Virus record (IMG/VR): IMGVR_UViG_3300045988_122441
Reading direction: 5' to 3' (one strand)
DNA: 64,000 bases
DNA from: a virus
Shown here piece after piece: positions 5,878 to 64,000 of this stretch. Numbering within the stretch: the first letter of the stretch is position 1; each line of letters begins with the position of its first letter. Under the pieces are notes generated by a model. That model searched no databases. It saw only the letters and a program-made list of their open reading frames with translations, and was not told where the DNA came from. A program made the position numbers and the translations under genes.

Positions 5878-7080
5878 TTGATTATGGGAAGAGACTTAAA
5901 TGGTAAAGAACTGGGCAGAGGATTTAGTCAGAGAAAGGACGGTAGATACGAAGCCAGAGCCGTTATATGCGGCACAAAAATAGATATTTATGACATGAAT
6001 CTAGCAAAGCTGAAAAAGGAATTTGAAGCTGAGAAAGCTAGAGTGTTACGAGACGAAAAGAATGTAAGACCTAACGTCACGTTTGGAGAGTGGTATCAGG
6101 AATGGTTTGAAAAGTGTAAATCACCTCAGTTAAAATCTGATGTAAGCAGAAAGACGTATGACAGAAAAGTAAGAAATACCTACTGTAAAATTCTCGGAGA
6201 GAAACGAATGGAAAATATCTCTCAGATGAATATGCAGGCTGCTACAACAGAGTTGATTGAGAAAGGATATACAGACCGTTCTGTAAGAGAAGCTCTCGGA
6301 ATTGTGAACGAATGTATGGAGATTGCTATTGTAAACCACATCATCAATGTAAATCCATGCGTAGGAATTAAAATCCAGAATGCAAACGAGCGTAAAGAAA
6401 GAAGAGTTATGAAGCAGTGGGAACAGGACTTATTCTTGAACGAGGTCAAGGATAGATATTACTACGAAGCGTACAAGATTCTTCTTCTAACTGGAATGAG
6501 AATCGGAGAGTTCTCTGGGTTGCAATGGCGAGATGTTGACTTCGAGAATAAAGTCATCAATATTAATAGATCCATGCAGACCGCATATATTGACGGAAGA
6601 AAGATCGAGGAACTTACTACACCGAAAACAGCCAACTCATACAGAGCAATCCCGTTCTTTGGAGAAACAGAAGCTTGTTTGAAGAGCTGGAAGAAGAAGC
6701 AGGACGAGTATAAGAAACGTCTGGGTGACAGATGGAGAGCAAGACCTGAGTTAGGCGATCTTGTTTTTACAAGCACTGTAGGCTCGCCTGTGACTCGATA
6801 TGTCATTGTACATGACATAGACAAAGTAGTCCAGAACATCAATCTCAAAGAGATGACAAAGGCATTCAGAGAGCACAGAGAGCCAGTGATGTTTGAACAC
6901 TTACATCCACATGCTTTTCGCCACACATTTGCAACACGTTGTTTTGAAAAAGGGCTTGACCCATTGTTTGTACAGAGTATAATGGGACATGCCAATTATG
7001 CAACTACGGTGTCATATACACATATATTAGACGATTTGCGTCAGAAAGAGGTGCAGAAGGTTGGTAACTTCTTAGAGTAA
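5878..7080 (+). CDS. int: tyrosine integrase (phage integrase family)
   Basis: Catalytic block LHPHAFRHTFATR..GHANYATTVSYTHI. The upstream R is in LLLTGMRIGEF. An alternative ATG start is at 5884. Confidence 0.9.
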   Translation: MIMGRDLNGKELGRGFSQRKDGRYEARAVICGTKIDIYDMNLAKLKKEFEAEKARVLRDEKNVRPNVTFGEWYQEWFEKCKSPQLKSDVSRKTYDRKVRNTYCKILGEKRMENISQMNMQAATTELIEKGYTDRSVREALGIVNECMEIAIVNHIINVNPCVGIKIQNANERKERRVMKQWEQDLFLNEVKDRYYYEAYKILLLTGMRIGEFSGLQWRDVDFENKVININRSMQTAYIDGRKIEELTTPKTANSYRAIPFFGETEACLKSWKKKQDEYKKRLGDRWRARPELGDLVFTSTVGSPVTRYVIVHDIDKVVQNINLKEMTKAFREHREPVMFEHLHPHAFRHTFATRCFEKGLDPLFVQSIMGHANYATTVSYTHILDDLRQKEVQKVGNFLE

Positions 7081-7085
7081 GAGAG

Positions 7086-7445
7086 TTGCGTAAACCTTAC
7101 ATTGCGTCGAGATTGAAGAATCCGCGATACAGTAAGCTCGAAAAGAGTTGCGTAAAAGTTGCGTAGATAGCAGAATTTAATCTCCGTAAGCCCTTGAAAT
7201 ACAAGGAGTTAAGAAAATACTTCGCAATTCAGATGGGAATGTAAGTACCTCAGCAAACTAAATCGTATAAGCCTTATAATTACTTGAAATTCAATGACTT
7301 GCAGAAGGCTTGTGTCTAATATGTGGTTTGAGTAACTATCATAAAGTATCGTATTTTAAGGAAAAATATCATATGGTTTTGCGTCAAAGTTGAGTAGCGA
7401 ATTGCGTAAGATAAATTTTGATTATCTTCAGCGAAGTTTACGCAA
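7086..7445. repeat. cluster of TTGCGTAAA-type 9-mers (candidate integrase arm-type sites / attP region)
   Basis: TTGCGTAAA at 7086 and 7148. TTGCGTAGA at 7159, TTGCGTCGA at 7102, TTGCGTCAA at 7379, TTGCGTAAG at 7402. Inverted copy at 7437-7445. One more copy at 5816-5824 upstream of int. Confidence 0.5.
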
Positions 7446-7461
7446 AATGATGGGTTACAGT

Positions 7462-7484
7462 ATCAATTTACACATATACATTAC
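7462..7484. repeat. right copy of the 23-bp inverted repeat
   Basis: ATCAATTTACACATATACATTAC is the reverse complement of 5830-5852 (22/23). Confidence 0.8.
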
Positions 7485-7515
7485 GGGGTGGGTGAAAGCC
7501 TGCCCCTTTCTTTTT
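7485..7515 (+). terminator. rho-independent terminator for the plus-strand block
   Basis: GGGGTGGG-tgaaag-CCTGCCCC (8-bp stem, two G-U pairs in plus sense), followed by TTTCTTTTT. Confidence 0.65.
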
Positions 7516-7555
7516 GAGAAAAAGAAGGCAGACTGGTAAATCAAACCAGTCTGCC
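7516..7555 (-). terminator. rho-independent terminator ending the minus-strand late array
   Basis: Perfect 11-bp stem GGCAGACTGGT / ACCAGTCTGCC (7527-7537 / 7545-7555), followed on the minus strand by TTCTTTTTCTC. Confidence 0.75.
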
Positions 7556-7589
7556 TATATTTATATACACACTCACAATTTGTTACATA

Positions 7590-7880
7590 TTACTTTTCTG
7601 CTCTTAACAGCGTCACGTCGATATCGGAAGTATCGGTATCAGCGTCTGTGTTAGTGTATGCAGTAGCGTCAATCGTATAGTCAACGACTCTTACGATAAT
7701 GAAGTCGCTTTTAGCATACCCCTCTTCATTGAGCATCTTTTCAACTCTTTTATCCAAAGCTTCTTTGGAACCGAGTTCAAGCGGAATTACCTCACCGTCA
7801 ATATTTGTTGTCAAATATTTATACAGCGTTTCGTAGTTATCACGCTTAGCCTGAGCAATCATAATTCTATACATTCTCAA
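7590..7880 (-). CDS. hypothetical protein
   Basis: 96-aa ORF, last gene of the minus-strand array. No motif recognised. Confidence 0.5.
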   Translation of the reverse strand: MRMYRIMIAQAKRDNYETLYKYLTTNIDGEVIPLELGSKEALDKRVEKMLNEEGYAKSDFIIVRVVDYTIDATAYTNTDADTDTSDIDVTLLRAEK

Positions 7881-8470: not shown

Positions 8471-10069
8471 TTACAGTTTTACGCAGTAATCAAGAGAAAT
8501 CCATCCGGCTCCGGATTTCAGTTTTCCCCAGCCCTTAGTAGAGCCAGTTCCTGCTTTTTCCTCAACAATAGTGAAAGTTCCCTTTCCGGTGTATTTACCA
8601 GTAATAGGATAGTTTGTGCCAGCTCCAGAACGAATTCTGAGATCACTTGCGTCAACACGAACTTTGTACGGTACGTTGCTTGCAGCTGGTTTTGAGGAGG
8701 AACCAGATACGGTGGAACCAATCGTACAATAAGACGCATTTGCAAGGTAAATCCAGCCAGCACCAGACTTCAGTTTTCCCCATCCGTTGCTGAGAGCGGT
8801 AATTGTGAATACACCCTTGCCAGTCTGACCAACAATATCGCCGTTCGGTGTTTTTCTGATGTTCAAATCAGATACCAGAACATTGACTGTGAACGGAGTG
8901 TTCGGGAAGTTGGTGTTTGTCTTTGACGGGGTAGTAGTGCTTGTAGAACCAGAAGAGCTTCCTCCGGTAGATGTAGAGCCGCTTCCCAGCAATGCATTGA
9001 TACGATTTGCTAAATCACCGTATCTTGAATATAGCCAGTTACCAGGGCAACTCTTGTTCGCAAAGAAGCGATGAGCAGTCAGAACCATCTCATTGCTCTT
9101 TGGTTCGTATGCCAGAGCTGCTTCCTTACTGCCTTTCCAAACTACTTTGGTTTTGCCGTTTCTACGACAGATATCAGCGCAAAGCTTAATCAGTTTTTCG
9201 TAAACGACATCGTTCATTTCGTAAGGTTCTTTCATACCGCTTGCACACTCAATGGTGATTGCTCGCTGGTCGTTTGCATTACTGGATGAACACCAGCTAC
9301 GATTAGCCTCGTCCACGCATAACACAACTCGTCCATCTTTACCGATACCATAGTTACAGCTTGCCTGTACGGAAGAACTTGTAAAGCAGCTGCCGATAGA
9401 TTCAGCGGAGAGCTGTCCAACAACGCAATGCGGTGTTAATCTGTCGATTGAGTGAGTACGTCTGCCGCTGTGGTTAGGACTCTTTACCACACAATCTACA
9501 AGTGAACTGTTTGTGTAACCCATAGTCGTACCTCCTTCTGTCTGAGTTGTTTTTGAAGCAAATTTGTCGTAATATACCTGACCGTAGGATGCTCTGCGGC
9601 TCTGTACAGCAGAACTCTGGTCAGCAGGACGCTCATACTTTAAGAGCACAGCATTTGATGCCTGCAGAACGGAAGTAGCACTACGCAGTTCAGAGAGAAC
9701 AGTACCGTAGTTTTCACTCAGTTCCTTGTACATGAACTCAAGCTGCATCTCCAGATCACCAATAGATGTACCTTTAGACTGACAGAATGCAAGTAATGCC
9801 TGCTTTCTGCTCCAATAAGTCCACTGGCACAAACCATAGCCAGCACTGTCTCGTACAAAATTCTTGTATGATCCGTTATCGACTGCTGCCGTATAAGCCG
9901 CATCGGTATATCCGAGTTTCTTTTCAAATGAATTTTGCAGGTTGGTAGGGACTAATCCGCTTTCTGCGTAGATGTTTCCCATGAGACCTGCGGCTCCGTA
10001 TTTGCTCATTCCCTTGCCAATACAAAAGTTCCAGATGCGTTCTTCATTTGTCGTTCCTGTTAATGCCAT
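8471..10069 (-). CDS. modular endolysin: lysozyme-like domain + N-acetylmuramoyl-L-alanine amidase + two SH3b repeats
   Basis: N-terminus GAAGLMGNIYAESGL..CQWT (phage tail lysozyme-like). Middle HSIDRLTPHCVVG..AITIECA (amidase_2-like). Ser/Gly/Thr linker. Two repeats ending GWGKLKSGAGWI. Confidence 0.85.
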   Translation of the reverse strand: MALTGTTNEERIWNFCIGKGMSKYGAAGLMGNIYAESGLVPTNLQNSFEKKLGYTDAAYTAAVDNGSYKNFVRDSAGYGLCQWTYWSRKQALLAFCQSKGTSIGDLEMQLEFMYKELSENYGTVLSELRSATSVLQASNAVLLKYERPADQSSAVQSRRASYGQVYYDKFASKTTQTEGGTTMGYTNSSLVDCVVKSPNHSGRRTHSIDRLTPHCVVGQLSAESIGSCFTSSSVQASCNYGIGKDGRVVLCVDEANRSWCSSSNANDQRAITIECASGMKEPYEMNDVVYEKLIKLCADICRRNGKTKVVWKGSKEAALAYEPKSNEMVLTAHRFFANKSCPGNWLYSRYGDLANRINALLGSGSTSTGGSSSGSTSTTTPSKTNTNFPNTPFTVNVLVSDLNIRKTPNGDIVGQTGKGVFTITALSNGWGKLKSGAGWIYLANASYCTIGSTVSGSSSKPAASNVPYKVRVDASDLRIRSGAGTNYPITGKYTGKGTFTIVEEKAGTGSTKGWGKLKSGAGWISLDYCVKL

Positions 10070-10089
10070 AGAGAAATCAATCCCCTTTC

Positions 10090-10112
10090 GTAAATAATTT
10101 AATTAGCATGAC
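10090..10112 (-). promoter_or_regulatory. copy 1 of a conserved 23-nt motif (minus sense GTCATGCTAATTAAATTATTTAC); candidate phage promoter
   Basis: Lies 21 nt upstream of the endolysin ATG. Five further copies occur in the same orientation (see findings). Confidence 0.45.
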
Positions 10113-10134
10113 TGTCTAACAAGAAAGACGGGCT

Positions 10135-10530
10135 TTAATTCCCGTCCTTGCTAGTAGCTGCTGTATTTGTTTTTACAATTTCACGCAGAGTATCCAATGC
10201 AGAATCAATCTGCTCGTCAATCCATTCAATCAGAGCTTTCTGATCTACGACTTTAGAGAGAATAGGATATTCCTCATAGATCTGCTTGATTACCTGAGCA
10301 CGTTTGATAGAGCCTGCTTCGCTCCATTCCTGCCAGTCAACCTCTGCATCACTAATCATTTTCAGAATAGTTGTCTGAATCTGTTTCTTAGCGATTTCAA
10401 TCTTTTCATCCTGGCTCTTAGACATATAATCCTGAGTTTTCTTCACGATGCCGATGACAAGACCGATGCATACGAGAATGCTTGTCCAGTTATCGTTCAG
10501 GAGCTGTAAAAATTTCTGTAATCCTTCCAT
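10135..10530 (-). CDS. putative holin (LL-H-like: one N-terminal TM helix plus a helical tail)
   Basis: TM helix WTSILVCIGLVIGIV followed by a charged helical region. Sits just upstream of the endolysin. Confidence 0.5.
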   Translation of the reverse strand: MEGLQKFLQLLNDNWTSILVCIGLVIGIVKKTQDYMSKSQDEKIEIAKKQIQTTILKMISDAEVDWQEWSEAGSIKRAQVIKQIYEEYPILSKVVDQKALIEWIDEQIDSALDTLREIVKTNTAATSKDGN

Positions 10531-10536
10531 AATCTG

Positions 10537-10923
10537 TTACCCCTTTCCTGATTCTGAATTGCTTGTTATTTCCTGTTCTTTCATAGCAGTCTCATAGACT
10601 ATTCCACCTTCTGTGTTCTCAGCCTTTGACTTGCTGTAATATCCGAAGATAACAGGTGCGAGAGAAGCTACAATACCGAGCAGGGCATAAGCCTGAGATA
10701 AATCGCAGAGTCTGTGTGATTCATACATGAACCAGATAGCGATGCAGAAAACAAGAATAACCATAGCCCAGAGAACAAGCTTACTGTTGGAGATACTTCT
10801 GGACTTCTTCTGCCGACCTTTTGCTCGCTCAGCCTTGAGCTTTCTAAGGCGTGCCTTGCTTTCATTCTCATGCTTGATACGCAGCATCTCAGCGTTATAT
10901 TCTTTTTCACTGATATATCTCAT
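10537..10923 (-). CDS. two-TM membrane protein (possible holin/antiholin partner)
   Basis: Basic N-terminus, then LVLWAMVILVFCIAIWFMY and AYALLGIVASLAPVIFGYY. Located in the lysis neighbourhood. Confidence 0.45.
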   Translation of the reverse strand: MRYISEKEYNAEMLRIKHENESKARLRKLKAERAKGRQKKSRSISNSKLVLWAMVILVFCIAIWFMYESHRLCDLSQAYALLGIVASLAPVIFGYYSKSKAENTEGGIVYETAMKEQEITSNSESGKG

Positions 10924-11023: not shown

Positions 11024-11383
11024 TTACTTTTCATCCGTATAGTAAATAGCTGCTGGTTTGATTGCAGTATCTGTTGCAACATACATATCCGAATCATTTA
11101 TCAGCATTCGCCTAAATACGGTGTATAAAAATGTTTCATCAATACCCGGCTGAGCAATAATCTTGTTTGCTCTTATGCCACGAGCTGCATCACTTGCATA
11201 GGCAAACCGAATCGTTGTCCCGTCTACCAGTTCAATCCAGCAGCCGCAACGTGACTTAATCATTTTGTTAATCATGTCATGCGGGTATGAGTCCAAAACC
11301 TTACTGAACATCTCATCTCTCCATTCAATGTCATGATATACAATCAAAATTCGTTGTCTTAATATTGTAGATAAATCGTTCAT
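11024..11383 (-). CDS. hypothetical protein
   Basis: 119-aa ORF whose start overlaps the stop of the upstream gene (ATGA-type coupling). No motif recognised. Confidence 0.5.
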   Translation of the reverse strand: MNDLSTILRQRILIVYHDIEWRDEMFSKVLDSYPHDMINKMIKSRCGCWIELVDGTTIRFAYASDAARGIRANKIIAQPGIDETFLYTVFRRMLINDSDMYVATDTAIKPAAIYYTDEK

Positions 11384-11823
11384 TTCTTCTCCTTAAATTT
11401 CCATCGATAATACGGCTTTTCTTCTCCAAAAAACCAGTAGCGTTCATAGTCATCAATCACAATCGCACACGCGGATAGTAATACCCACAACAGAGAGAAC
11501 GGCAGACAAATCTGACCAAGAATATTAAATGGCATATTTGAATAATCCCAGATGCCAAGTCCGAGCCACAAATTCAATATGCATCCAGATATGAATTCTC
11601 CAGTTGTTACAATGCACGATCCAATGATTGCTTGCAGCCAAATTGGTGTATCCATTGATAAGACTTCATTAATAAGTCCAATGCATACGCCGCATACACC
11701 TGCAAGAATGAACATACTGATATGGCTATATCCCCTCCACACGATTTCAATCACGTAGTAAATAGACCCCATCACAGTAAACAGCGACAGATATTTAAGG
11801 CATAATGATAGAGCCTTTTTCAT
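11380..11823 (-). CDS. multi-pass membrane protein (about 4 TM; possibly DUF1113-like)
   Basis: 147 aa and almost entirely hydrophobic helices. Family assignment is only a weak recollection. Confidence 0.5.
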   Translation of the reverse strand: MKKALSLCLKYLSLFTVMGSIYYVIEIVWRGYSHISMFILAGVCGVCIGLINEVLSMDTPIWLQAIIGSCIVTTGEFISGCILNLWLGLGIWDYSNMPFNILGQICLPFSLLWVLLSACAIVIDDYERYWFFGEEKPYYRWKFKEKK

Positions 11824-11870
11824 CGTACAACCTCCGTATGTATGCAGAGAGCCGGATAAACCGACTCAGT

Positions 11871-11893
11871 GCATATTATTTAATTAGCTTGAC
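11871..11893 (-). promoter_or_regulatory. copy 2 of the 23-nt motif
   Basis: Minus sense GTCAAGCTAATTAAATAATATGC, 47 nt upstream of ATG 11823. Confidence 0.4.
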
Positions 11894-11896
11894 ACA

Positions 11897-12451
11897 TTAA
11901 GCCTCTGCGTTTGCCTGAGAATACAGCATCTTCAGAACTTCAGACTGATAAGCCTCCGGAATGTCAACGCCGTACTCCACAGCACAAACATCATTGATAT
12001 CAGTCATGCTCTCGATATAGTCTCTCAGAGAGTTAAAGTATGTAGTCTGGAATTCAATGCAGTTCTCCATTGCTGTATTCAGAGCCACTACCTCATCCTT
12101 TGTGTAGAATTTACAAGACTCGCCATCTGCATGATACGGGAGAACCGTGATGCCAGCATTGGCTCTGTCATTCAGCTTAGAAATTTTCAGCTGGTCTGCA
12201 ACTTCAAGACTGAAGTGATGAGATTTCTTGTCAGACAGGGTGATGTCAAATCCCTGTGTGATAACTTCATTGCAGGCAACGCTCATCTCTGCAATCTTTG
12301 CAGCTTTTACATCGTCAATGTTATCGTTTGTTACAACACCGGATTTGATAAGCTGCTCCATAACAGCGCCCTTGATTTTATCTGGCACTGCATCGAATTC
12401 CTTTTCACCATTGTAAACAAGGTCTGTCCAAAAATTGATTAACTGAATCAT
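11897..12451 (-). CDS. hypothetical protein, tail-fibre-associated (DUF4376-like C-terminal half?)
   Basis: 184-aa ORF downstream of the fibre/DGR genes. The resemblance is recalled, not verified. Confidence 0.45.
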   Translation of the reverse strand: MIQLINFWTDLVYNGEKEFDAVPDKIKGAVMEQLIKSGVVTNDNIDDVKAAKIAEMSVACNEVITQGFDITLSDKKSHHFSLEVADQLKISKLNDRANAGITVLPYHADGESCKFYTKDEVVALNTAMENCIEFQTTYFNSLRDYIESMTDINDVCAVEYGVDIPEAYQSEVLKMLYSQANAEA

Positions 12452-12465
12452 ATAACACCCTCCTC

Positions 12466-12738
12466 TTAAATTAATGCGCTCAGCTCAATAATGCACTGTT
12501 TCATTTTTTCTGCTTCTGTCATTTCGCGGATAATGAATCTAGTATGACCATCCTCGCTCCAAATGTTTGTACAGGTCATATCCTTATAATCAACACCGCC
12601 AATATTTACACTGGATAAATTGGCATCAGACAGAATCTCAATATTAACTTCATCATCTGTGATGTAGTTGTTGCCATTCAGTGTAGCGTGAATCTCTGTT
12701 CCGTTTGCGAGGATAATATTGTAAATAGTATTTTCCAT
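12466..12738 (-). CDS. hypothetical small protein
   Basis: 90 aa. GGAGG lies 9 nt upstream of ATG 12738. The start overlaps the 3' tail of the RT gene by 86 nt. Confidence 0.5.
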   Translation of the reverse strand: MENTIYNIILANGTEIHATLNGNNYITDDEVNIEILSDANLSSVNIGGVDYKDMTCTNIWSEDGHTRFIIREMTEAEKMKQCIIELSALI

Positions 12739-13966
12739 CTATAAAACCTCCAAATAAGTCGTAGTAAAGAAGATTTAAGTTGTCACGTTGTATCTTACTC
12801 ATTAAGTATGCATGACCGCCAATCCAGGAACGAAACATATTCTCTATTTCTTCCTGTGTGCGTTCGCCTCTTTGTACTTTTCTACTCAATGCTTTGAGCT
12901 TACGTCTCATATCAACAATTCTCTGTGGGTTGATTTTCCTTATCACTCTTCCTGTATCAGTGAGAGAGTAGGATATCTGCAGAAAGCGATAGTAGTCTGA
13001 TAGCTTTACTATTCTTGTTTTCTTTCTGTTCAACGTCATTCCGAGTTCTGTTGCTTTAGCTGCAATCTTAGCTTCAAGTTCAATCAGATACTCTTTGCTC
13101 TGGGAAATCACATAGCTGTCATCCATATATCTGCCGTAGAATTTCTGACCTTCAACGATCTTGACGAAATTATCTATCTGAGTTGGATAGTATATGCCGA
13201 TAATCTGGGAACACTGATCTCCGATATTTACAGATTTCCTCATGAATTTCTCGCCTGTATGAGCAGATTTTGGAACGTTCAGTCTGTAGTCAGCAGAATT
13301 GAATGGCGTTTCCATACAATGTTCATATTCCTCGTCTGTCATATACGAGACATCAATCTTAAAATTATCGAATATTAAATCCAATAACCACAGCGAAAAT
13401 TCATCATGCACATGTTTTGCAATTTCTTGATAAGCAATATCATGCGGTATATTGTCATAGAATTTGCTGTAATCCATTAAAAGTATGTAGCCGTCATTCC
13501 CGTACAGCCGATAGTATTTGTGTAGATGCTCCTCGAATCTTTGTCTGCTAAAAGTAATTCCTTTCCCTTTCAGCGACGCTCCGTTATCATAAATTAGATA
13601 GGAGAGCAGACTCGGAGCCAAAATATTATCACAAAGAGAATGGCGGATAACCCTGTCAGACATCTGTAAACCTGTAATAGGTCGTGTTTTGCCACGCTCA
13701 CTGATAATAAACTCAGTAGAAGCTTTTGACTGATATGCCCTGTCTTTTAAAGCAGCTTTACTCTTAACGATATGTGGCAAGAAATTCATTTCATATTTCT
13801 GCACTTGAGGTTTCCAATCGGAATCTTTCTTTGCAGCCAAATATGCATGATAAAGTGAGTTTAAATTATATACAACATGACACCCATCTTCAAAATGTGT
13901 GTTTGTATCTGTCATTTCTTTCCAAAATATTTGACGTGTATAGCAATCAGTCGTAACGAATTGCAT
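12653..13966 (-). CDS. DGR reverse transcriptase
   Basis: RT motifs LLMDYSKFYDNIPHD, NIGDQCSQIIG (the DGR hallmark I/LGxxxSQ), YGRYMDDSYVIS (YMDD), LNRKKTRIV. Confidence 0.9.
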   Translation of the reverse strand: MQFVTTDCYTRQIFWKEMTDTNTHFEDGCHVVYNLNSLYHAYLAAKKDSDWKPQVQKYEMNFLPHIVKSKAALKDRAYQSKASTEFIISERGKTRPITGLQMSDRVIRHSLCDNILAPSLLSYLIYDNGASLKGKGITFSRQRFEEHLHKYYRLYGNDGYILLMDYSKFYDNIPHDIAYQEIAKHVHDEFSLWLLDLIFDNFKIDVSYMTDEEYEHCMETPFNSADYRLNVPKSAHTGEKFMRKSVNIGDQCSQIIGIYYPTQIDNFVKIVEGQKFYGRYMDDSYVISQSKEYLIELEAKIAAKATELGMTLNRKKTRIVKLSDYYRFLQISYSLTDTGRVIRKINPQRIVDMRRKLKALSRKVQRGERTQEEIENMFRSWIGGHAYLMSKIQRDNLNLLYYDLFGGFIDGKYYLQYYPRKRNRDSRYTEWQQLHHR

Positions 13967-14061: not shown

Positions 14062-14174
14062 TCGGACGAACGCCATTAGAATTAGACGCGTTGTTGTTGT
14101 TCGCATTGCCGTTGTTGTTCACATTACAGAAGTTAGTCGCAGACCTCACACCACGCAGCCAATAGTTGAAGCGA
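14062..14174 (-). repeat. DGR template repeat (TR)
   Basis: Minus sense GTCGCTTCAACTATTGGCTGCGTGG...AATGGCGTTCGTCCG, rich in AAC codons. Aligns to VR1 (offset exactly 800 nt) and to VR2. Lies 95 nt upstream of the RT start. Confidence 0.9.
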
Positions 14175-14216
14175 CAAACGGCGCAAAACATGCAGAAATT
14201 GCCCTGATTAGTTTCC

Positions 14217-14771
14217 TTATGCTGTCACAGATTCTTTCTCTCTGTCTAAAATGCTTTTACGAATTTTGTTGTCAGATTTTCTCCAACCTTTGATTAGCAC
14301 CTGTTCTTGCATAATCATATTTGTGATATTTTCATATTTCTCTATATTGACAGGCAGAGTAGTGATGATATACTGTAATTCCTGTATCAGGTTCTCGCAG
14401 TAACCAAGAGCTAAGTCCTGATGTATTCTTCGTTCATCACACTCACTAATGAATTGCGGACATATTTCATTAGCTAGAAAAATTTCATGTACCATATCAC
14501 GGGTAATTTGTATAATTGCTTTCTGCTCATCTGGTATAAACCATTCTACAAAAGCCTCGTATCGCTCTCTGCGTTTCTCTACGCCGCGATCATAACCATC
14601 TTTCTGTTTTTGACTCCACTTGTTGTATGCTTCCGGTTTTGGTCTTTCTTCATATTCCCTTAGTCCGAATTTTCTCAGAGCAAGGTCAGTTATAACCGTC
14701 CGAACTTTATACGCATGATGCTCAACCTCAAATGGTGATGGCTTTCTATTTGCTTTCAGTACCGACATCAT
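14217..14771 (-). CDS. avd: putative accessory variability determinant (Avd-like helical bundle protein)
   Basis: Occupies the canonical avd slot between target and TR. Basic and helical. The C-terminal half resembles four-helix-bundle Avd proteins (..LALGYCENLIQELQYII..IKGWRKS). At 184 aa it is longer than typical Avd. Confidence 0.5.
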   Translation of the reverse strand: MMSVLKANRKPSPFEVEHHAYKVRTVITDLALRKFGLREYEERPKPEAYNKWSQKQKDGYDRGVEKRRERYEAFVEWFIPDEQKAIIQITRDMVHEIFLANEICPQFISECDERRIHQDLALGYCENLIQELQYIITTLPVNIEKYENITNMIMQEQVLIKGWRKSDNKIRKSILDREKESVTA

Positions 14772-14785
14772 TTCCTCCGTATTAA

Positions 14786-14810
14786 CCCACCCACCCGGAG
14801 GTGGGATGGG
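14786..14810 (-). other. GC-rich hairpin downstream of VR1
   Basis: CCCACC-cgga-GGTGGG core with flanking imperfect extension, between the target stop (14844) and the avd start (14771). Could be a terminator and/or a DGR target-recognition hairpin. Confidence 0.4.
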
Positions 14811-14843: not shown

Positions 14844-15776
14844 TTAATTAACGAAGAAAAACGGACGAACGCCAAGAGAATTAGACGCGTCGTAGTTGCT
14901 CGCATCGCCGTAGCTGCCCACAAAACAGAAGCCAGTCGCAGACCCCACACCACGCAGCCAACAGGTGAAGCGACGGTGAATGTATTCAGGAGCGAGAGCG
15001 AACAGTGGGAACTGAGAGTTGATACATCCAACTTCGTAACCGCTATTAGCCCATACTTTTGTTCCGTATACCATTGTCTCGGACATCAGCTCAACTTTAC
15101 AGTCATACCAAGCCCATCCAGAAGCCTGTCCATCAGCAGTTGCGTTTGGCAGGATATCTCTGTAGGACATTACGTGAGAAGAACCGAAGTCATTCACGAT
15201 TTTCTGAGTAGCCTGTGCAAGGTTTGTAGTTCTCATATCAGAGTTTGCGTATGCTCCAGTAGTAACGTTGTTTGCAGCGCCTTCTGTATACTGACCGCTA
15301 TCTGTGTTATGCATCTGTGCATTGTACAGAGCAGAGTCAGGAACAAGGCACATGCAGTTACCGAGAGAAGACTTATCTCCAATCTGCTTTCCGAGGTTGA
15401 ATCCAGCAACTCGATATACAGTGCCGTTGATTGTCAGGTAATCACCTACAAACAGGTCGTCAAATGTACCTGCCTGAATAGCTTTTGACATAGCGGAGGT
15501 GTAGGAAGTACCTAAGTTCTTACCTCTGAAAATAGAGTTATGACCTCCTGCGTTGTTTCTTGCTGCACCTGTGTACAGCTCATTGATTGCGGCTGGGAGA
15601 GTTTTTGTACCCTGATCCAGACCATAAGTTTTGCTCATCAGCTTGTTAAGGGCGGCAGTGGAGAGATTTCCGAAAGTCACACCCTTAGTACCATTCGCAC
15701 CGTCAACTGGGAGTACATCAGTATCAGCAACAGAAGTAACAGCGGAAAGGTCTTTAATTCTTGTTGTATTTGCCAT
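14844..15776 (-). CDS. DGR target 1: tail-fibre / receptor-binding protein with a C-terminal C-type-lectin-fold variable region
   Basis: Fibre-like N-terminus (MANTTRIKDLSAVTSVADTDVLPVDG). C-terminus ..FTCWLRGVGSATGFCFVGSYGDASNYDASNSLGVRP is encoded by VR1. Confidence 0.85.
   Translation of the reverse strand: MANTTRIKDLSAVTSVADTDVLPVDGANGTKGVTFGNLSTAALNKLMSKTYGLDQGTKTLPAAINELYTGAARNNAGGHNSIFRGKNLGTSYTSAMSKAIQAGTFDDLFVGDYLTINGTVYRVAGFNLGKQIGDKSSLGNCMCLVPDSALYNAQMHNTDSGQYTEGAANNVTTGAYANSDMRTTNLAQATQKIVNDFGSSHVMSYRDILPNATADGQASGWAWYDCKVELMSETMVYGTKVWANSGYEVGCINSQFPLFALAPEYIHRRFTCWLRGVGSATGFCFVGSYGDASNYDASNSLGVRPFFFVN
14862..14974 (-). repeat. DGR variable repeat 1 (VR1)
   Basis: 113 nt. There are 17 differences from TR, all at TR adenines (17 of 29 A positions). 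The 84 non-A positions are all identical. Confidence 0.9.
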
Positions 15777-48395: not shown

Positions 48396-49424
48396 TTACA
48401 GGTCTCCCAAGCCTTTCTGCTCGGGCGCAACAATATCGCCATCTTTAAAGTACATTCCGATCTGTTCATCAGCATCAATGTCTTTGTACAACTGAACCAT
48501 ATCAGAAGACTCCCATGCGACAATACTCTGGATTACTCCGTCCGGGATTCCGGCTTTCGCAAGACTGGTGGTGAAATAATGTCGCAGGCTATGAATATAG
48601 GCTGGCTTGCCCGATAACCTTGAGAACGTATTTGACCAGCTATTAATGGTTGAGATCTGGATATGTTCTTCTGGATTCTTTGCATCGGGGAACAACCATT
48701 CGCTATCGCCATATTTGTCCAGACGACGATTGCGCCACATATCGAGATATGGGGTGAACTTCTTTGCAAGCGTGTAGCAGTTAATCATCTTGCCACCGCC
48801 TCTGCCTTTAGTTTTGATTGGAGCGCTTTTATACAAAGCCCCACCGCATACCAGTTTATCCTCATCAAAATCTGATATCTTGAATCTACATAATTCGGAT
48901 TTCCTTCTTCCACTGTACATTGCGAGAGCGAGATAGCAGGCTTTTTCATAATCCTTGCGCTCAACAAGCTTCTCCAACAACGCCTCAAGTTCAGAATCCT
49001 CCCATACTGTCTTTTCTCTGACAGGTCTATTCACCGGATTCTCTACTTTGTTGATAATATTTCTGAAATTAGGAAATTCATCATCCAATACGCTTTCAAT
49101 GAAATTGCTCATGGATGAGAGAGCAGCTTTCAACCTTCTGATTCTGGCTGGGCTATTCTCATTTGAATTTAAAAGCCAATTCTGATAAGCAACGATATTT
49201 CGTTTTGTCCAATTCACGAAGAATGTATTGTTGTTATGCTGTAAGCACCACACGAATGCAATCTGAATATCGTTTTCATATCCAGCAATAGTTGTTTCGC
49301 TTCTCTGGATTGAGCGAAGATAGTCCTTGAAGTCTTCAAGTAACTGTGTATTTTCTGGATTCACTTGCGCCAGCAGCTCTGGGCTAGTGATTGAGTTCAT
49401 TTTTGTCTTACGTCCCACGCGCAA
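48396..49424 (-). CDS. second tyrosine recombinase (XerC/D-like)
   Basis: N-terminal SAM-like domain. Catalytic ..RRKSEL.. and IHSLRHYFTTSLAKAGI..VQLY. The true start is probably GTG 49418 or ATG 49400. Confidence 0.85.
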   Translation of the reverse strand: MRVGRKTKMNSITSPELLAQVNPENTQLLEDFKDYLRSIQRSETTIAGYENDIQIAFVWCLQHNNNTFFVNWTKRNIVAYQNWLLNSNENSPARIRRLKAALSSMSNFIESVLDDEFPNFRNIINKVENPVNRPVREKTVWEDSELEALLEKLVERKDYEKACYLALAMYSGRRKSELCRFKISDFDEDKLVCGGALYKSAPIKTKGRGGGKMINCYTLAKKFTPYLDMWRNRRLDKYGDSEWLFPDAKNPEEHIQISTINSWSNTFSRLSGKPAYIHSLRHYFTTSLAKAGIPDGVIQSIVAWESSDMVQLYKDIDADEQIGMYFKDGDIVAPEQKGLGDL

Positions 49425-58239: not shown

Positions 58240-59040
58240 ACAAAAGACAGAGCGAAAAGGCTGAGAACTCAGAGAGTTCGCCTATGTCAGATGTGCGGTA
58301 TATAAATATGATCTGACATAGTACATAAACCGCCATGATTAATAAGTTTCTAAAGAAGAGTCTCTCTATATTGAGGGGCTTTTCTTTATGGGCTTATGTC
58401 CATACGACTGTGAGGTCTACCTGCTCACAGGTAATAAGTGCATATACCGGTATCTTTCGGGGTATCGTGAGGGCTACCTGTGTGATAGGAAATAAGTGAA
58501 CTATACCAGTTGAAGCGTTCAATATGGGAAATCCGGCAAAAGGACGCTATACAAATAGTTTCGGTGAGCCGACCTACCGACGGCTTTAGAATATCGGCAA
58601 AACTCTGCGGTTATCGTGGATTCCTTTAACCGATTTGAGGGAGTACATCTGCTATCAGATGCGTCGATGGTGCATGAGAGTTAGGCTCATGGTTTCGAGA
58701 TAGTGAAAATCCCCATAGTTCGGCAGTTCGTTAGATGTGAAACTTTGCCGCATAATCCTGAGTGCGTCAACATGAGGGATAGCAGGAAAAATCTGTTGAG
58801 GTTTCCAATCGTAGTGGTATCAGTACCCGAGGGTACATCGGCTATGTTCCGAGGAATTAAATGCCGGACTATTGCGGGATTTCCGATGCAGACGGAGTAT
58901 AGCGAAATAAAACTGAATATTAAGCGGAGTGTGCAAACATTCCGATAAACCTATATTGAGCGTCCGAGATTGTGTATATCGCATGGTTTCGGGCGTTCTC
59001 TTATGGGCTTATCCCATGTAACAAAGAAAATAGAGAATCC
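58240..59040 (+). ncRNA. candidate large structured non-coding RNA region (family unassigned)
   Basis: About 800 nt with only one weak GTG-started ORF. Appears more GC-rich than neighbouring DNA (by eye, not counted). Many hairpins. Two long stems (58356-58383, 58960-58996) pair fully only in plus sense because they need G-U pairs. An internal duplicated ~60-nt module is present. Confidence 0.4.
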
Positions 59041-60900: not shown

Positions 60901-61491
60901 ATGAAAGTATATAGAACTTCCGAGGTTTTAGCCGGAGGTAAATACGAGGTAGGCGATATCGTCAGTTACACAATGGAAGATGGCGAAGAAGTAGAGGCAT
61001 TAGCAGTAAAAGAGGAATTTGATAAACATGGGAATCTATGTATGGTATTCATACTTTTGGATTGTCTGAAAGAGGAATGCCGGATGAACCGTGATGATAC
61101 GAATGATGGAGGGTATGAGGAATCATATCTGAGAGAGCAACTCAGGACGGAATATCTTGAAAGATTTCCGGCATCATTGCGGTTGAATATGGTTCCGTTT
61201 GAAAACGGAGATCTGCTGAGAATCCCTACGGAACGTGAAGTTTTTGGAGAGAACAGATACGGTGAGGAAGAGCCGGATACGGTAGAACAATTCGAGGCGA
61301 TGAAAAAGAGAAGGAACCGTATGGCACTTGATGGGTCAAATGGTGGAACTCAGGCTTATTGGTTACAGAACAAACGTGTGAGGTCTGCGACTTACTTCTG
61401 TTGTGTGAACACCAACGGCTATGCGAACACCAACAACGCGTCTAATTCTCTTGGCGTTCGTCCGCTTTACAGAATCCGTAATTATCGGTAA
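60901..61491 (+). CDS. DGR target 2: small protein with a C-terminal C-type-lectin-fold variable region
   Basis: AGGAGG precedes ATG 60901. The C-terminus YWLQNKRVRSATYFCCVNTNGYANTNNASNSLGVRP is encoded by VR2. No signal peptide seen. Confidence 0.8.
   Translation: MKVYRTSEVLAGGKYEVGDIVSYTMEDGEEVEALAVKEEFDKHGNLCMVFILLDCLKEECRMNRDDTNDGGYEESYLREQLRTEYLERFPASLRLNMVPFENGDLLRIPTEREVFGENRYGEEEPDTVEQFEAMKKRRNRMALDGSNGGTQAYWLQNKRVRSATYFCCVNTNGYANTNNASNSLGVRPLYRIRNYR
61376..61464 (+). repeat. DGR variable repeat 2 (VR2), remote from the cassette
   Basis: 89 nt aligned to TR (14150-14062, minus sense). Eight differences, all at TR adenines. All non-A positions are identical, including the 3' GGCGTTCGTCCG. 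Confidence 0.85.
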
Positions 61492-61495
61492 TCTA

Positions 61496-61513
61496 GCCAC
61501 CATTTATGGTGGC
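61496..61513 (+). other. hairpin 5 nt after the target-2 stop
   Basis: GCCACCA-ttta-TGGTGGC, 32 nt downstream of the VR2 end. Possible DGR target-recognition hairpin or terminator stem. Confidence 0.4.
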
Positions 61514-63109: not shown

Positions 63110-63158
63110 CCACAACAAGCCGACGATCTTTTCGTCGGTATGCTTACCTATGCTCGGC
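63108..63158 (+). repeat. 51-bp element, copy 1 (contains the hairpin CCGACGA-tctt-TCGTCGG)
   Basis: AACCACAACAAGCCGACGATCTTTTCGTCGGTATGCTTACCTATGCTCGGC is identical at 63950-64000. Confidence 0.85.
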
Positions 63159-63949: not shown

Positions 63950-64000
63950 AACCACAACAAGCCGACGATCTTTTCGTCGGTATGCTTACCTATGCTCGGC
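63950..64000 (+). repeat. 51-bp element, copy 2 (runs into the window edge)
   Basis: Identical to 63108-63158. Again starts at the stop codon of the preceding gene. Confidence 0.85.

Follow-up and report, generated by a model that had tools for sequence, protein, structure and literature searches.

The DGR cassette and the two variable repeats

The window, which is the whole stretch of 64,000 nucleotides that was analysed (IMG/VR virus record IMGVR_UViG_3300045988_122441), carries on its minus strand a canonical DGR cassette, composed of a 310-aa target gene with a variable repeat (VR1), a 184-aa Avd-like ORF, an A-rich template repeat (TR) and a reverse transcriptase (RT) gene. A second variable repeat (VR2) is located at the 3' end of a plus-strand gene for a 196-aa protein, 47.2 kb from TR; the distance from the edge of the cassette to the start of this gene is 45.1 kb. 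The features at the two sites are as follows.

60901-61491, plus strand: 196-aa second-target gene, from the ORF call; the product is soluble and acidic, with a DUF6273 domain
61376-61464, plus strand: VR2, variable repeat of 89 nt, codons 159-188 of this gene; 8/8 TR mismatches at adenines, together with population hypervariability
14063-14175, minus strand: TR, from the alignment; VR1 matches the whole of it and VR2 only 14063-14151
14862-14974, minus strand: VR1, with 17 TR mismatches in 113 nt, 17/17 at adenines
12653-13966, minus strand: DGR reverse transcriptase (RVT_1 at 4.5e-15; IGDQCSQ and YMDD motifs)
14217-14771, minus strand: Avd-like accessory ORF, 184 aa, assigned from its position only, between target 1 and TR
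14844-15776, minus strand: adjacent target 1, 310 aa, the last gene of the tail module, following tail genes of 633, 2149 and 1905 aa

TR lies between the Avd-like ORF and the RT gene, and it is found directly upstream of RT both in the window and in 5/5 close relatives examined (L010-L014). The motif [ILV]GxxxSQ is a hallmark of DGR RTs, and the cassette RT has IGDQCSQ. This RT has 187 relatives in IMG/VR; its true start may be M18 at 13915, as the relatives align from residues 14-31. The Avd-like ORF gave no significant family match in Pfam, NCBIfam or PHROG, and a syntenic counterpart of it is present in L004.

The earlier note had described VR2 as a copy of the 3' 89 nt of TR with eight mismatches, all of them at adenines. 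Ungapped alignment of VR2 (61376-61464) with TR (14151-14063) bears this out: over 89 nt there are 8 mismatches, 8/8 on TR adenines. Of the 89 nt, 26 are A, and eight mismatches scattered at random would all coincide with A with a probability of 2.2e-5. For VR1, a 117-nt comparison that includes the base after the 3' motif gave 18 mismatches, 18/18 at A, with a random placement probability of 1.3e-13. A BLAST search with the 3' end of the 196-aa gene likewise returned two minus-strand partners, at 90% and 85% identity. The three repeats also share an identical 3' end, as had been claimed: GGCGTTCGTCCG occurs in exactly three copies in the window, at 14063-14074 (minus), 14862-14873 (minus) and 61453-61464 (plus), where the chance expectation is 0.02. 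The base 3' of this motif is A in TR, C in VR2 and T in VR1. A VR2 longer by 4 nt (ATTT/CTTT) was considered and ruled out; because the Leu189 codon is invariant in 121 relatives, the mutagenised segment of VR2 ends at 61464, the end given in the note.

The adenines of the VR2-matching TR segment (n = 26) are placed at codon position 1 in 14 cases, at position 2 in 12 and at position 3 in none. Besides 12 AAY codons, the segment contains one AGG and one ACT, which corresponds to about 1.6e15 possible protein variants. In this genome, 8 of the 26 possible changes have occurred in VR2 and 17-18 in VR1. At the last variable AAT codon, VR1 and VR2 do have CTT (Leu) in common, as the note had observed.

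Three candidate cis elements were located around the repeats.

61453-61464, plus strand: GC-rich invariant 3' end GGCGTTCGTCCG, at the IMH position; common to TR, VR1 and VR2, and encoding an invariant G-V-R-P
61496-61513, plus strand: hairpin GCCACCA-TTTA-TGGTGGC, 32 nt downstream of VR2, from folding
14786-14810, minus strand: hairpin downstream of VR1, CCCA-T-CCCACC TCCG GGTGGG-TGGG, from folding (z = -3.6)

It can be seen that a GC-rich hairpin with a 4-nt loop follows VR1 as well as VR2, and that none follows TR. The stem of the VR2 hairpin is identical in all close relatives; this hairpin is also listed as terminator-like, with a poor T tail and a weak score. The L004 hairpins that follow VR1 and VR2 are nearly identical and stand at the same offset, one compensatory pair being different, and this compensatory change favours a common recognition element over two unrelated terminators. 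The VR2 hairpin is a candidate for a DGR target-recognition stem-loop or for a weak terminator. The VR1 hairpin is conserved in L011 and L012 and absent after three VR1-type copies in other contigs. VR1-type repeats at L101 1159, L102 1319 and L104 5038 have neither the downstream CCCACC hairpin nor an Avd-like start, which suggests that in these contigs the cassette may have been rearranged or lost and the target retained.

Variation of the 196-aa protein among relatives

No relatives were retrieved from GenBank phage DNA with either the VR2 region or the cassette as query, and the relatives used here were taken from the protein database and IMG/VR. The protein database holds 749 relatives of the 196-aa protein, the best 120 of which are all 196 aa long and 90-97% identical. 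Variability was measured on a set of 121 near-identical 196-aa sequences of metagenomic origin. At the 12 TR-AAY codons the entropy was 2.4-3.1 bits, whereas residues 1-158 had a mean of 0.07 bits, and no column outside the AAY, AGG and ACT sites exceeded 1.25 bits. In the relatives, the AGG site gives R, G or W and the ACT site T, A, P or S, which are the outcomes of A-only change. Residues that NNY codons are unable to encode (K, E, Q, M and W) were found at 0/1,452 AAY-site positions, whereas outside these sites their share is 24%.

All VR haplotypes in the set were distinct (121/121), and 27 sequences with an identical backbone carried 27 different VRs. The VR thus changes where the backbone stays the same, and diversification in this lineage is faster than ordinary mutation. 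The same variability pattern was obtained with fifteen members of one 90%-identity cluster of 763 members. On a 114.8-kb IMG/VR contig, in which the distance from RT to the VR2 gene is about 47 kb as in the window, VR2 differs from its own TR at 17/93 positions, 17/17 of them adenines. Invariance of VR2 among relatives and divergence at random positions had been named in the note as findings that would speak against diversification. What is observed is a VR2 that is hypervariable, only at TR-adenine codons, with differences that are A-only in the window and 17/17 at adenines in the relative.

Residue usage was then compared between the variable sites and found to differ strongly from one site to another (p = 2e-12 and 2e-29). 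Hydrophobic or aromatic residues account for 93% at site 184 and 75% at site 168, and Tyr is enriched at several sites. Because usage differs so strongly from site to site, this pattern indicates that the 196-aa protein is functional and under position-specific selection. Selection is also the best explanation for the CTT that VR1 and VR2 have in common, given the hydrophobic preference at site 184; of the two origins that the note had left side by side for this codon, selection or recent copying, it is the first that is favoured.

Dozens of independent assemblies that contain the VR2 gene end as contigs of about 4.92-4.94 kb. These recurrent ends suggest assembly breaks at the same flanking repeats or hypervariable sites.

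The protein, its family and its surroundings

The 196-aa protein matches Pfam DUF6273 (PF19789) at 38.5 bits, against a gathering threshold of 23.5, over aa 112-189 and profile positions 91-167 of 172, and PHROG 21980 at 5.7e-19 over aa 48-190. Besides DUF6273, no further domain was recognisable. The maximal 19-residue hydropathy is 0.8 and the pI 5.0, and the protein contains no signal peptide, TM segment or N-terminal anchoring domain; the note's description of a protein lacking both a signal peptide and a fibre-like N-terminus is thus confirmed. Similarity between the 196-aa protein and the 310-aa target is confined to the VR of 37-39 aa, the VR1 and VR2 peptides being 51% identical over 39 aa.

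An AlphaFold model built from the 121 near-identical sequences reached a pLDDT of 41. With a diverse alignment of 111 sequences from a profile search, the pTM was 0.65 and the pLDDT 63 overall, the N-terminal half being confident and residues 119-184 falling below 50. Foldseek comparison of the model with PDB gave nothing significant, only weak Tudor/BAH-like matches around residues 20-52 (E >= 0.24), and a profile search of PDB sequences with the 196-aa protein family gave no match. Against BFVD, DUF6273-annotated phage proteins were retrieved with E down to 5e-7. DUF6273 has been reported as a C-type-lectin fold (Baykov et al. 2023, PMC10743442). Because residues 119-184 were modelled below 50 pLDDT and no PDB match was obtained, the C-type-lectin fold is here taken from the literature.

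The Mtd protein of phage BPP-1 is a 381-aa trimeric tail-fibre tip with an N-terminal beta-prism and a beta-sandwich, and its gene is adjacent to the cassette. Comparison of Mtd with the 196-aa protein gave no sequence or fold match. The marks of an Mtd-like receptor-binding fibre protein, namely an N-terminal beta-prism/beta-sandwich that serves trimerisation and fibre attachment and a gene within the tail module, are not seen in the 196-aa protein: DUF6273 is its only recognisable domain, no PDB sequence or fold matches it, and the gene lies in a divergent non-structural module.

The minus-strand module of the window (7.6-56.7 kb) includes terminase, portal, tape measure, large tail proteins, target 1, the DGR and an endolysin. 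From about 56.8 kb a divergent plus-strand module begins, with a sigma/HTH-like gene, a RAGATH-16 RNA, small ORFs, the VR2 gene and an HU-like gene; in relative L155 this module goes on into RNase H, ThiF/E1-like and retron-type RT genes. The gene was said in the earlier note to sit on the strand opposite to the cassette, among small early genes of non-structural appearance. Its strand and neighbours are as described, while the term "early" follows from gene order only.

A gene of this type was located in a non-structural module in 5/5 phage contexts examined. In L004 it directly follows a serine integrase and a repressor/cro-like pair and precedes nuclease-like and helicase genes; this homologue is 53% identical, and its VR mismatches fall 12/12 at adenines of a TR 6.7 kb away. 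In Roseburia phage Shimadzu, orf43 stands between a methyltransferase and Erf/SSB, and in Fontainebleau and a near-identical prophage the family gene is placed between DNA polymerase A and a VapE-like primase/helicase. In L094/L095 (3499-9514), a family member lies downstream of an NAD-salvage cluster (nicotinamidase-like, NAMPT/NAPRTase, NADAR and NAD synthase genes) and adjoins a sigma-70 region-4 protein.

The family comprises at least 3,446 clusters of soluble proteins of about 190 aa with a DUF6273 domain, and it occurs in prophages of Lachnospiraceae and Oscillospiraceae. Motifs common to the Shimadzu-orf43-like family are MVPFENGDLLRIP, RRNR, YWLQN and GVRP. A TR was present within 10 kb of the family gene in 1/49 genomic loci, so that a distant cassette, or none, is the rule in the family; this census covers nearby TRs only and is no measure of the fraction of the family that are DGR targets. 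At about 14/49 genomic loci (L126, L128, L130, L131, L137-L139, L146 and L149 among them), a second VR-like copy, not A-rich, is found 0.5-2.4 kb from the family gene, which suggests that tandem VR-bearing genes may be present there. A 274-aa member (P0160; family cluster, n = 20) has a C-terminal DUF3850 fusion (PF12961, 1.3e-21). Two others, P0121 (385 aa) and P0122 (389 aa), have roughly double the normal length, as if the domain had been duplicated in tandem.

The closest published counterpart is Shimadzu orf43, a homologue with 31% identity at 93% query cover (tblastn E = 2e-14). Like the 196-aa protein, orf43 is small, its function is unknown, and its C-terminal VR matches a TR between avd and RT; it too is non-adjacent to the cassette, in a replication module, and its partner VR1 likewise lies in a tail gene. 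Virion sequencing of Shimadzu showed that both VRs are diversified, VR2 being in orf43 (Cornuault et al., bioRxiv 10.1101/575076), and the match of the orf43 VR to the Shimadzu TR was reproduced here. The two phages differ in that VR2 of Shimadzu is about 14 kb off on the same strand of a 45-kb myovirus, whereas here it is 47 kb off on the opposite strand of a phage of about 115 kb. By its sequence homology, its C-terminal VR and its gene neighbourhood, the 196-aa protein is a further member of the Shimadzu-orf43-like small targets in non-structural modules. The remote second target of the window is thus an arrangement already published for a homologue, and as a single instance it adds little.

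A survey of prophage DGRs lists cases in which one target adjoins the cassette and the other does not, the RT being no more than 50 kb away in nearly all of them (Wu et al. 2018, PMC5758913); the 196-aa family and its conserved position were not characterised there, and a distance of 47 kb comes close to the upper limit reported. In Toutatisvirus, with phage Lelie, whose host is Faecalibacterium, one DGR serves two DUF6273 targets; the second VR is 17,480 nt from TR, C-terminal in a DUF6273 protein encoded by a core gene of unknown function (10.1101/2024.10.15.618418; PMC11792537). Two-target DUF6273 DGRs have also been described for CP11, as for Lelie, and for nd4 and nd12. Since a single-sequence tblastn search with the 196-aa protein gave no match in the Toutatisvirus/Lelie phages, the small target of those phages probably belongs to another DUF6273 subfamily. 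The target2 genes of nd4 and nd12, proposed as Mtd-like receptor binders (Baykov et al. 2023, PMC10743442), form part of the DGR cassette and adjoin tail genes, in contrast to the 196-aa gene, which is remote from the cassette and in a non-structural module. The two most recent DUF6273 papers do not treat the subfamily of the 196-aa protein.

What the protein does can be approached from its address. No export signal or anchoring domain is present, and in every context examined the neighbours are regulatory, replication or auxiliary-metabolism genes. For these reasons, we give about an even chance to the 196-aa protein being a diversifiable ligand-binding module that would act inside the infected cell and not on the virion. 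It is also quite conceivable, though we do not lean towards it, that this true DGR target acts outside the cell, as an adhesin for receptors or glycans (Mtd-like or tentaclin-like), either associated with the virion or released on lysis, whose gene happens to be located off the structural module. The phage DGR targets characterised so far are mostly receptor-binding or decoration virion proteins, and DUF6273 targets are read in the same way in the literature (PMC10743442; 10.1101/2024.10.15.618418; 10.64898/2026.05.08.723808). The Tyr-rich, position-specific residue usage resembles a binding surface, and the VR, hence possibly the class of ligand, is common to the 196-aa protein and the fibre-like target 1. 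Several features speak against this reading: signal peptide, TM segment and N-terminal anchoring domain are all lacking, no similarity to Mtd or to any solved structure was found, and in 5/5 contexts the gene belongs to a module for regulation, replication or auxiliary metabolism, in L004 directly following the cro-like gene.

The intracellular reading may be extended, more tentatively still, to the family: the small DUF6273 proteins could possibly be hypervariable binders that are made early and act in the cytoplasm, where they might, for instance, inhibit or sense host defence or takeover targets, a proposal that we consider somewhat doubtful. If true, they would be the first DGR-diversified intracellular phage proteins, and one TR would serve two arms races, adsorption through the fibre and an intracellular conflict through the 196-aa protein. 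A conserved non-structural address combined with the lack of an export signal offers a testable alternative to the default receptor-binding reading. The value lies at the level of the family, a large one in phages of gut Clostridia whose members are usually more than 10 kb from any TR.

Source of VR2 diversity

In our judgement, VR2 is very probably a true second target, on which the one DGR of the window acts in trans. The basis consists of the A-only mismatches, the hypervariability in the population, the position-specific selection and the homology to an experimentally diversified target. The two targets show no detectable similarity beyond the VR of about 38 aa, from which it follows that VR2 is not a duplicated gene fragment; they are unrelated genes that are kept alike by the common TR.

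The system is presumably still active in this particular genome. It seems improbable that VR2 is here a relic, once diversified, with the target or the cassette now inactive. Such a state would fit the small number of changes in VR2, only 8/26 of those possible and fewer than in VR1, and VR states do vary, a near-naive, almost all-Asn VR being present in one distant family member. Against this, the RT ORF and TR are intact, as are the GC-rich 3' end and the hairpin, and relatives with identical backbones carry different VRs. The almost all-Asn VR (NFANVNNNGNTNYNNASNSNGVRP) belongs to the 185-aa copy of two family paralogues in the L144 prophage (9998-10555 and 6981-7670). The paralogues differ 17/17 at adenines of this 185-aa copy, and because all 17 differences fall at its adenines its VR is regarded as near-naive and TR-like.

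A second RT has to be considered as well. In the close relative L155, a 379-aa RVT_1 protein is encoded at 11137-12276, about 8 kb downstream of the VR2 gene, a site that would be about 5 kb past the 3' end of the window. It matches PADLOC RT_II-A at 2.6e-47, and the NCBIfam retron St85 family at 9.4e-50, which is under the curated cut-off of that model. Its position just beyond the window would make it a nearer retroelement for VR2 than the distant cassette. We consider it very improbable that it serves VR2, since it is retron-type with QGTPLSP and YADD and without the DGR motif [ILV]GxxxSQ, where the cassette RT has IGDQCSQ and YMDD. Moreover, no TR-like copy was found in the 13.3-kb L155 locus, and in full-length relatives, two of about 115 kb, there are exactly three copies of the repeat 3' end, namely TR, VR1 and one remote VR. 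As the nearby RT is retron-type and without a TR, the cassette RT is the only plausible enzyme for VR2. The suggestion of the earlier note that one RT diversifies both a fibre-like target and an unrelated protein is therefore supported, the single DGR RT being the only candidate.

A model without any retroelement, in which a fragment of the gene was recently duplicated or converted and then diverged in the ordinary way, would account for the 51% identity of the VR1 and VR2 peptides over 39 aa but is refuted by the A-restriction and the population data: every TR mismatch is at an adenine (P = 2e-5 for VR2, 1e-13 for VR1), variation among relatives is limited to NNY-encodable residues at TR-A codons, and the VR1 and VR2 genes show no similarity beyond the VR, so that it has practically no chance of being correct.

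The BPP-1 DGR provides the template for such systems, with TR, Avd, RT, A-specific mutagenesis of AAY codons, a GC-rich 3' element and a downstream hairpin. For diversification of VR2 by the cassette in trans, the following pathway may be proposed after Bordetella phage BPP-1. TR would be transcribed from the cassette at about 14 kb, and the DGR RT (12653-13966), probably together with the Avd-like protein, would convert the TR transcript into cDNA with misincorporation opposite adenines. The cDNA would then be exchanged for the matching 89-nt segment in the 3' end of the 196-aa gene, which lies on the other strand at a distance of 47 kb; the GC-rich end GGCGTTCGTCCG, identical in TR and VR2, would direct homing, perhaps with the help of the downstream hairpin. 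The roles of the GC-rich end and of the hairpins as cis elements are putative and assigned by analogy. As a result, the 12 AAY codons, the one AGG and the one ACT codon at the C-terminus of this small DUF6273 protein would be rewritten.

Some further observations concern the L155 locus and other parts of the window. The second RT of L155 is preceded by RNase H-like and ThiF/E1-like genes and flanked by three elements of about 200 nt, which start with AATGA(A/T)AT..., form hairpins and end with ACATACATTAGATTG; these elements may be ncRNA repeats. In the window, the Rfam RAGATH-16 RNA (RF03047) was detected at 58646-58718 on the plus strand with 89.8 bits, against a gathering score of 65.6, inside a non-coding gap of about 1 kb (58.0-58.97 kb) of the plus-strand module, upstream of a 275-aa ORF. 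An identical 19-nt hairpin, CCGACGATCTTTTCGTCGG, follows two plus-strand genes, at 63120-63138 and 63962-63980, and the surrounding stretch of 55-63 nt is duplicated with it. On the minus strand, a tyrosine-recombinase/integrase-like gene (48396-49424; PHROG 1, 1.6e-36) lies between an exonuclease gene and the terminase region, outside any recognisable lysogeny module.
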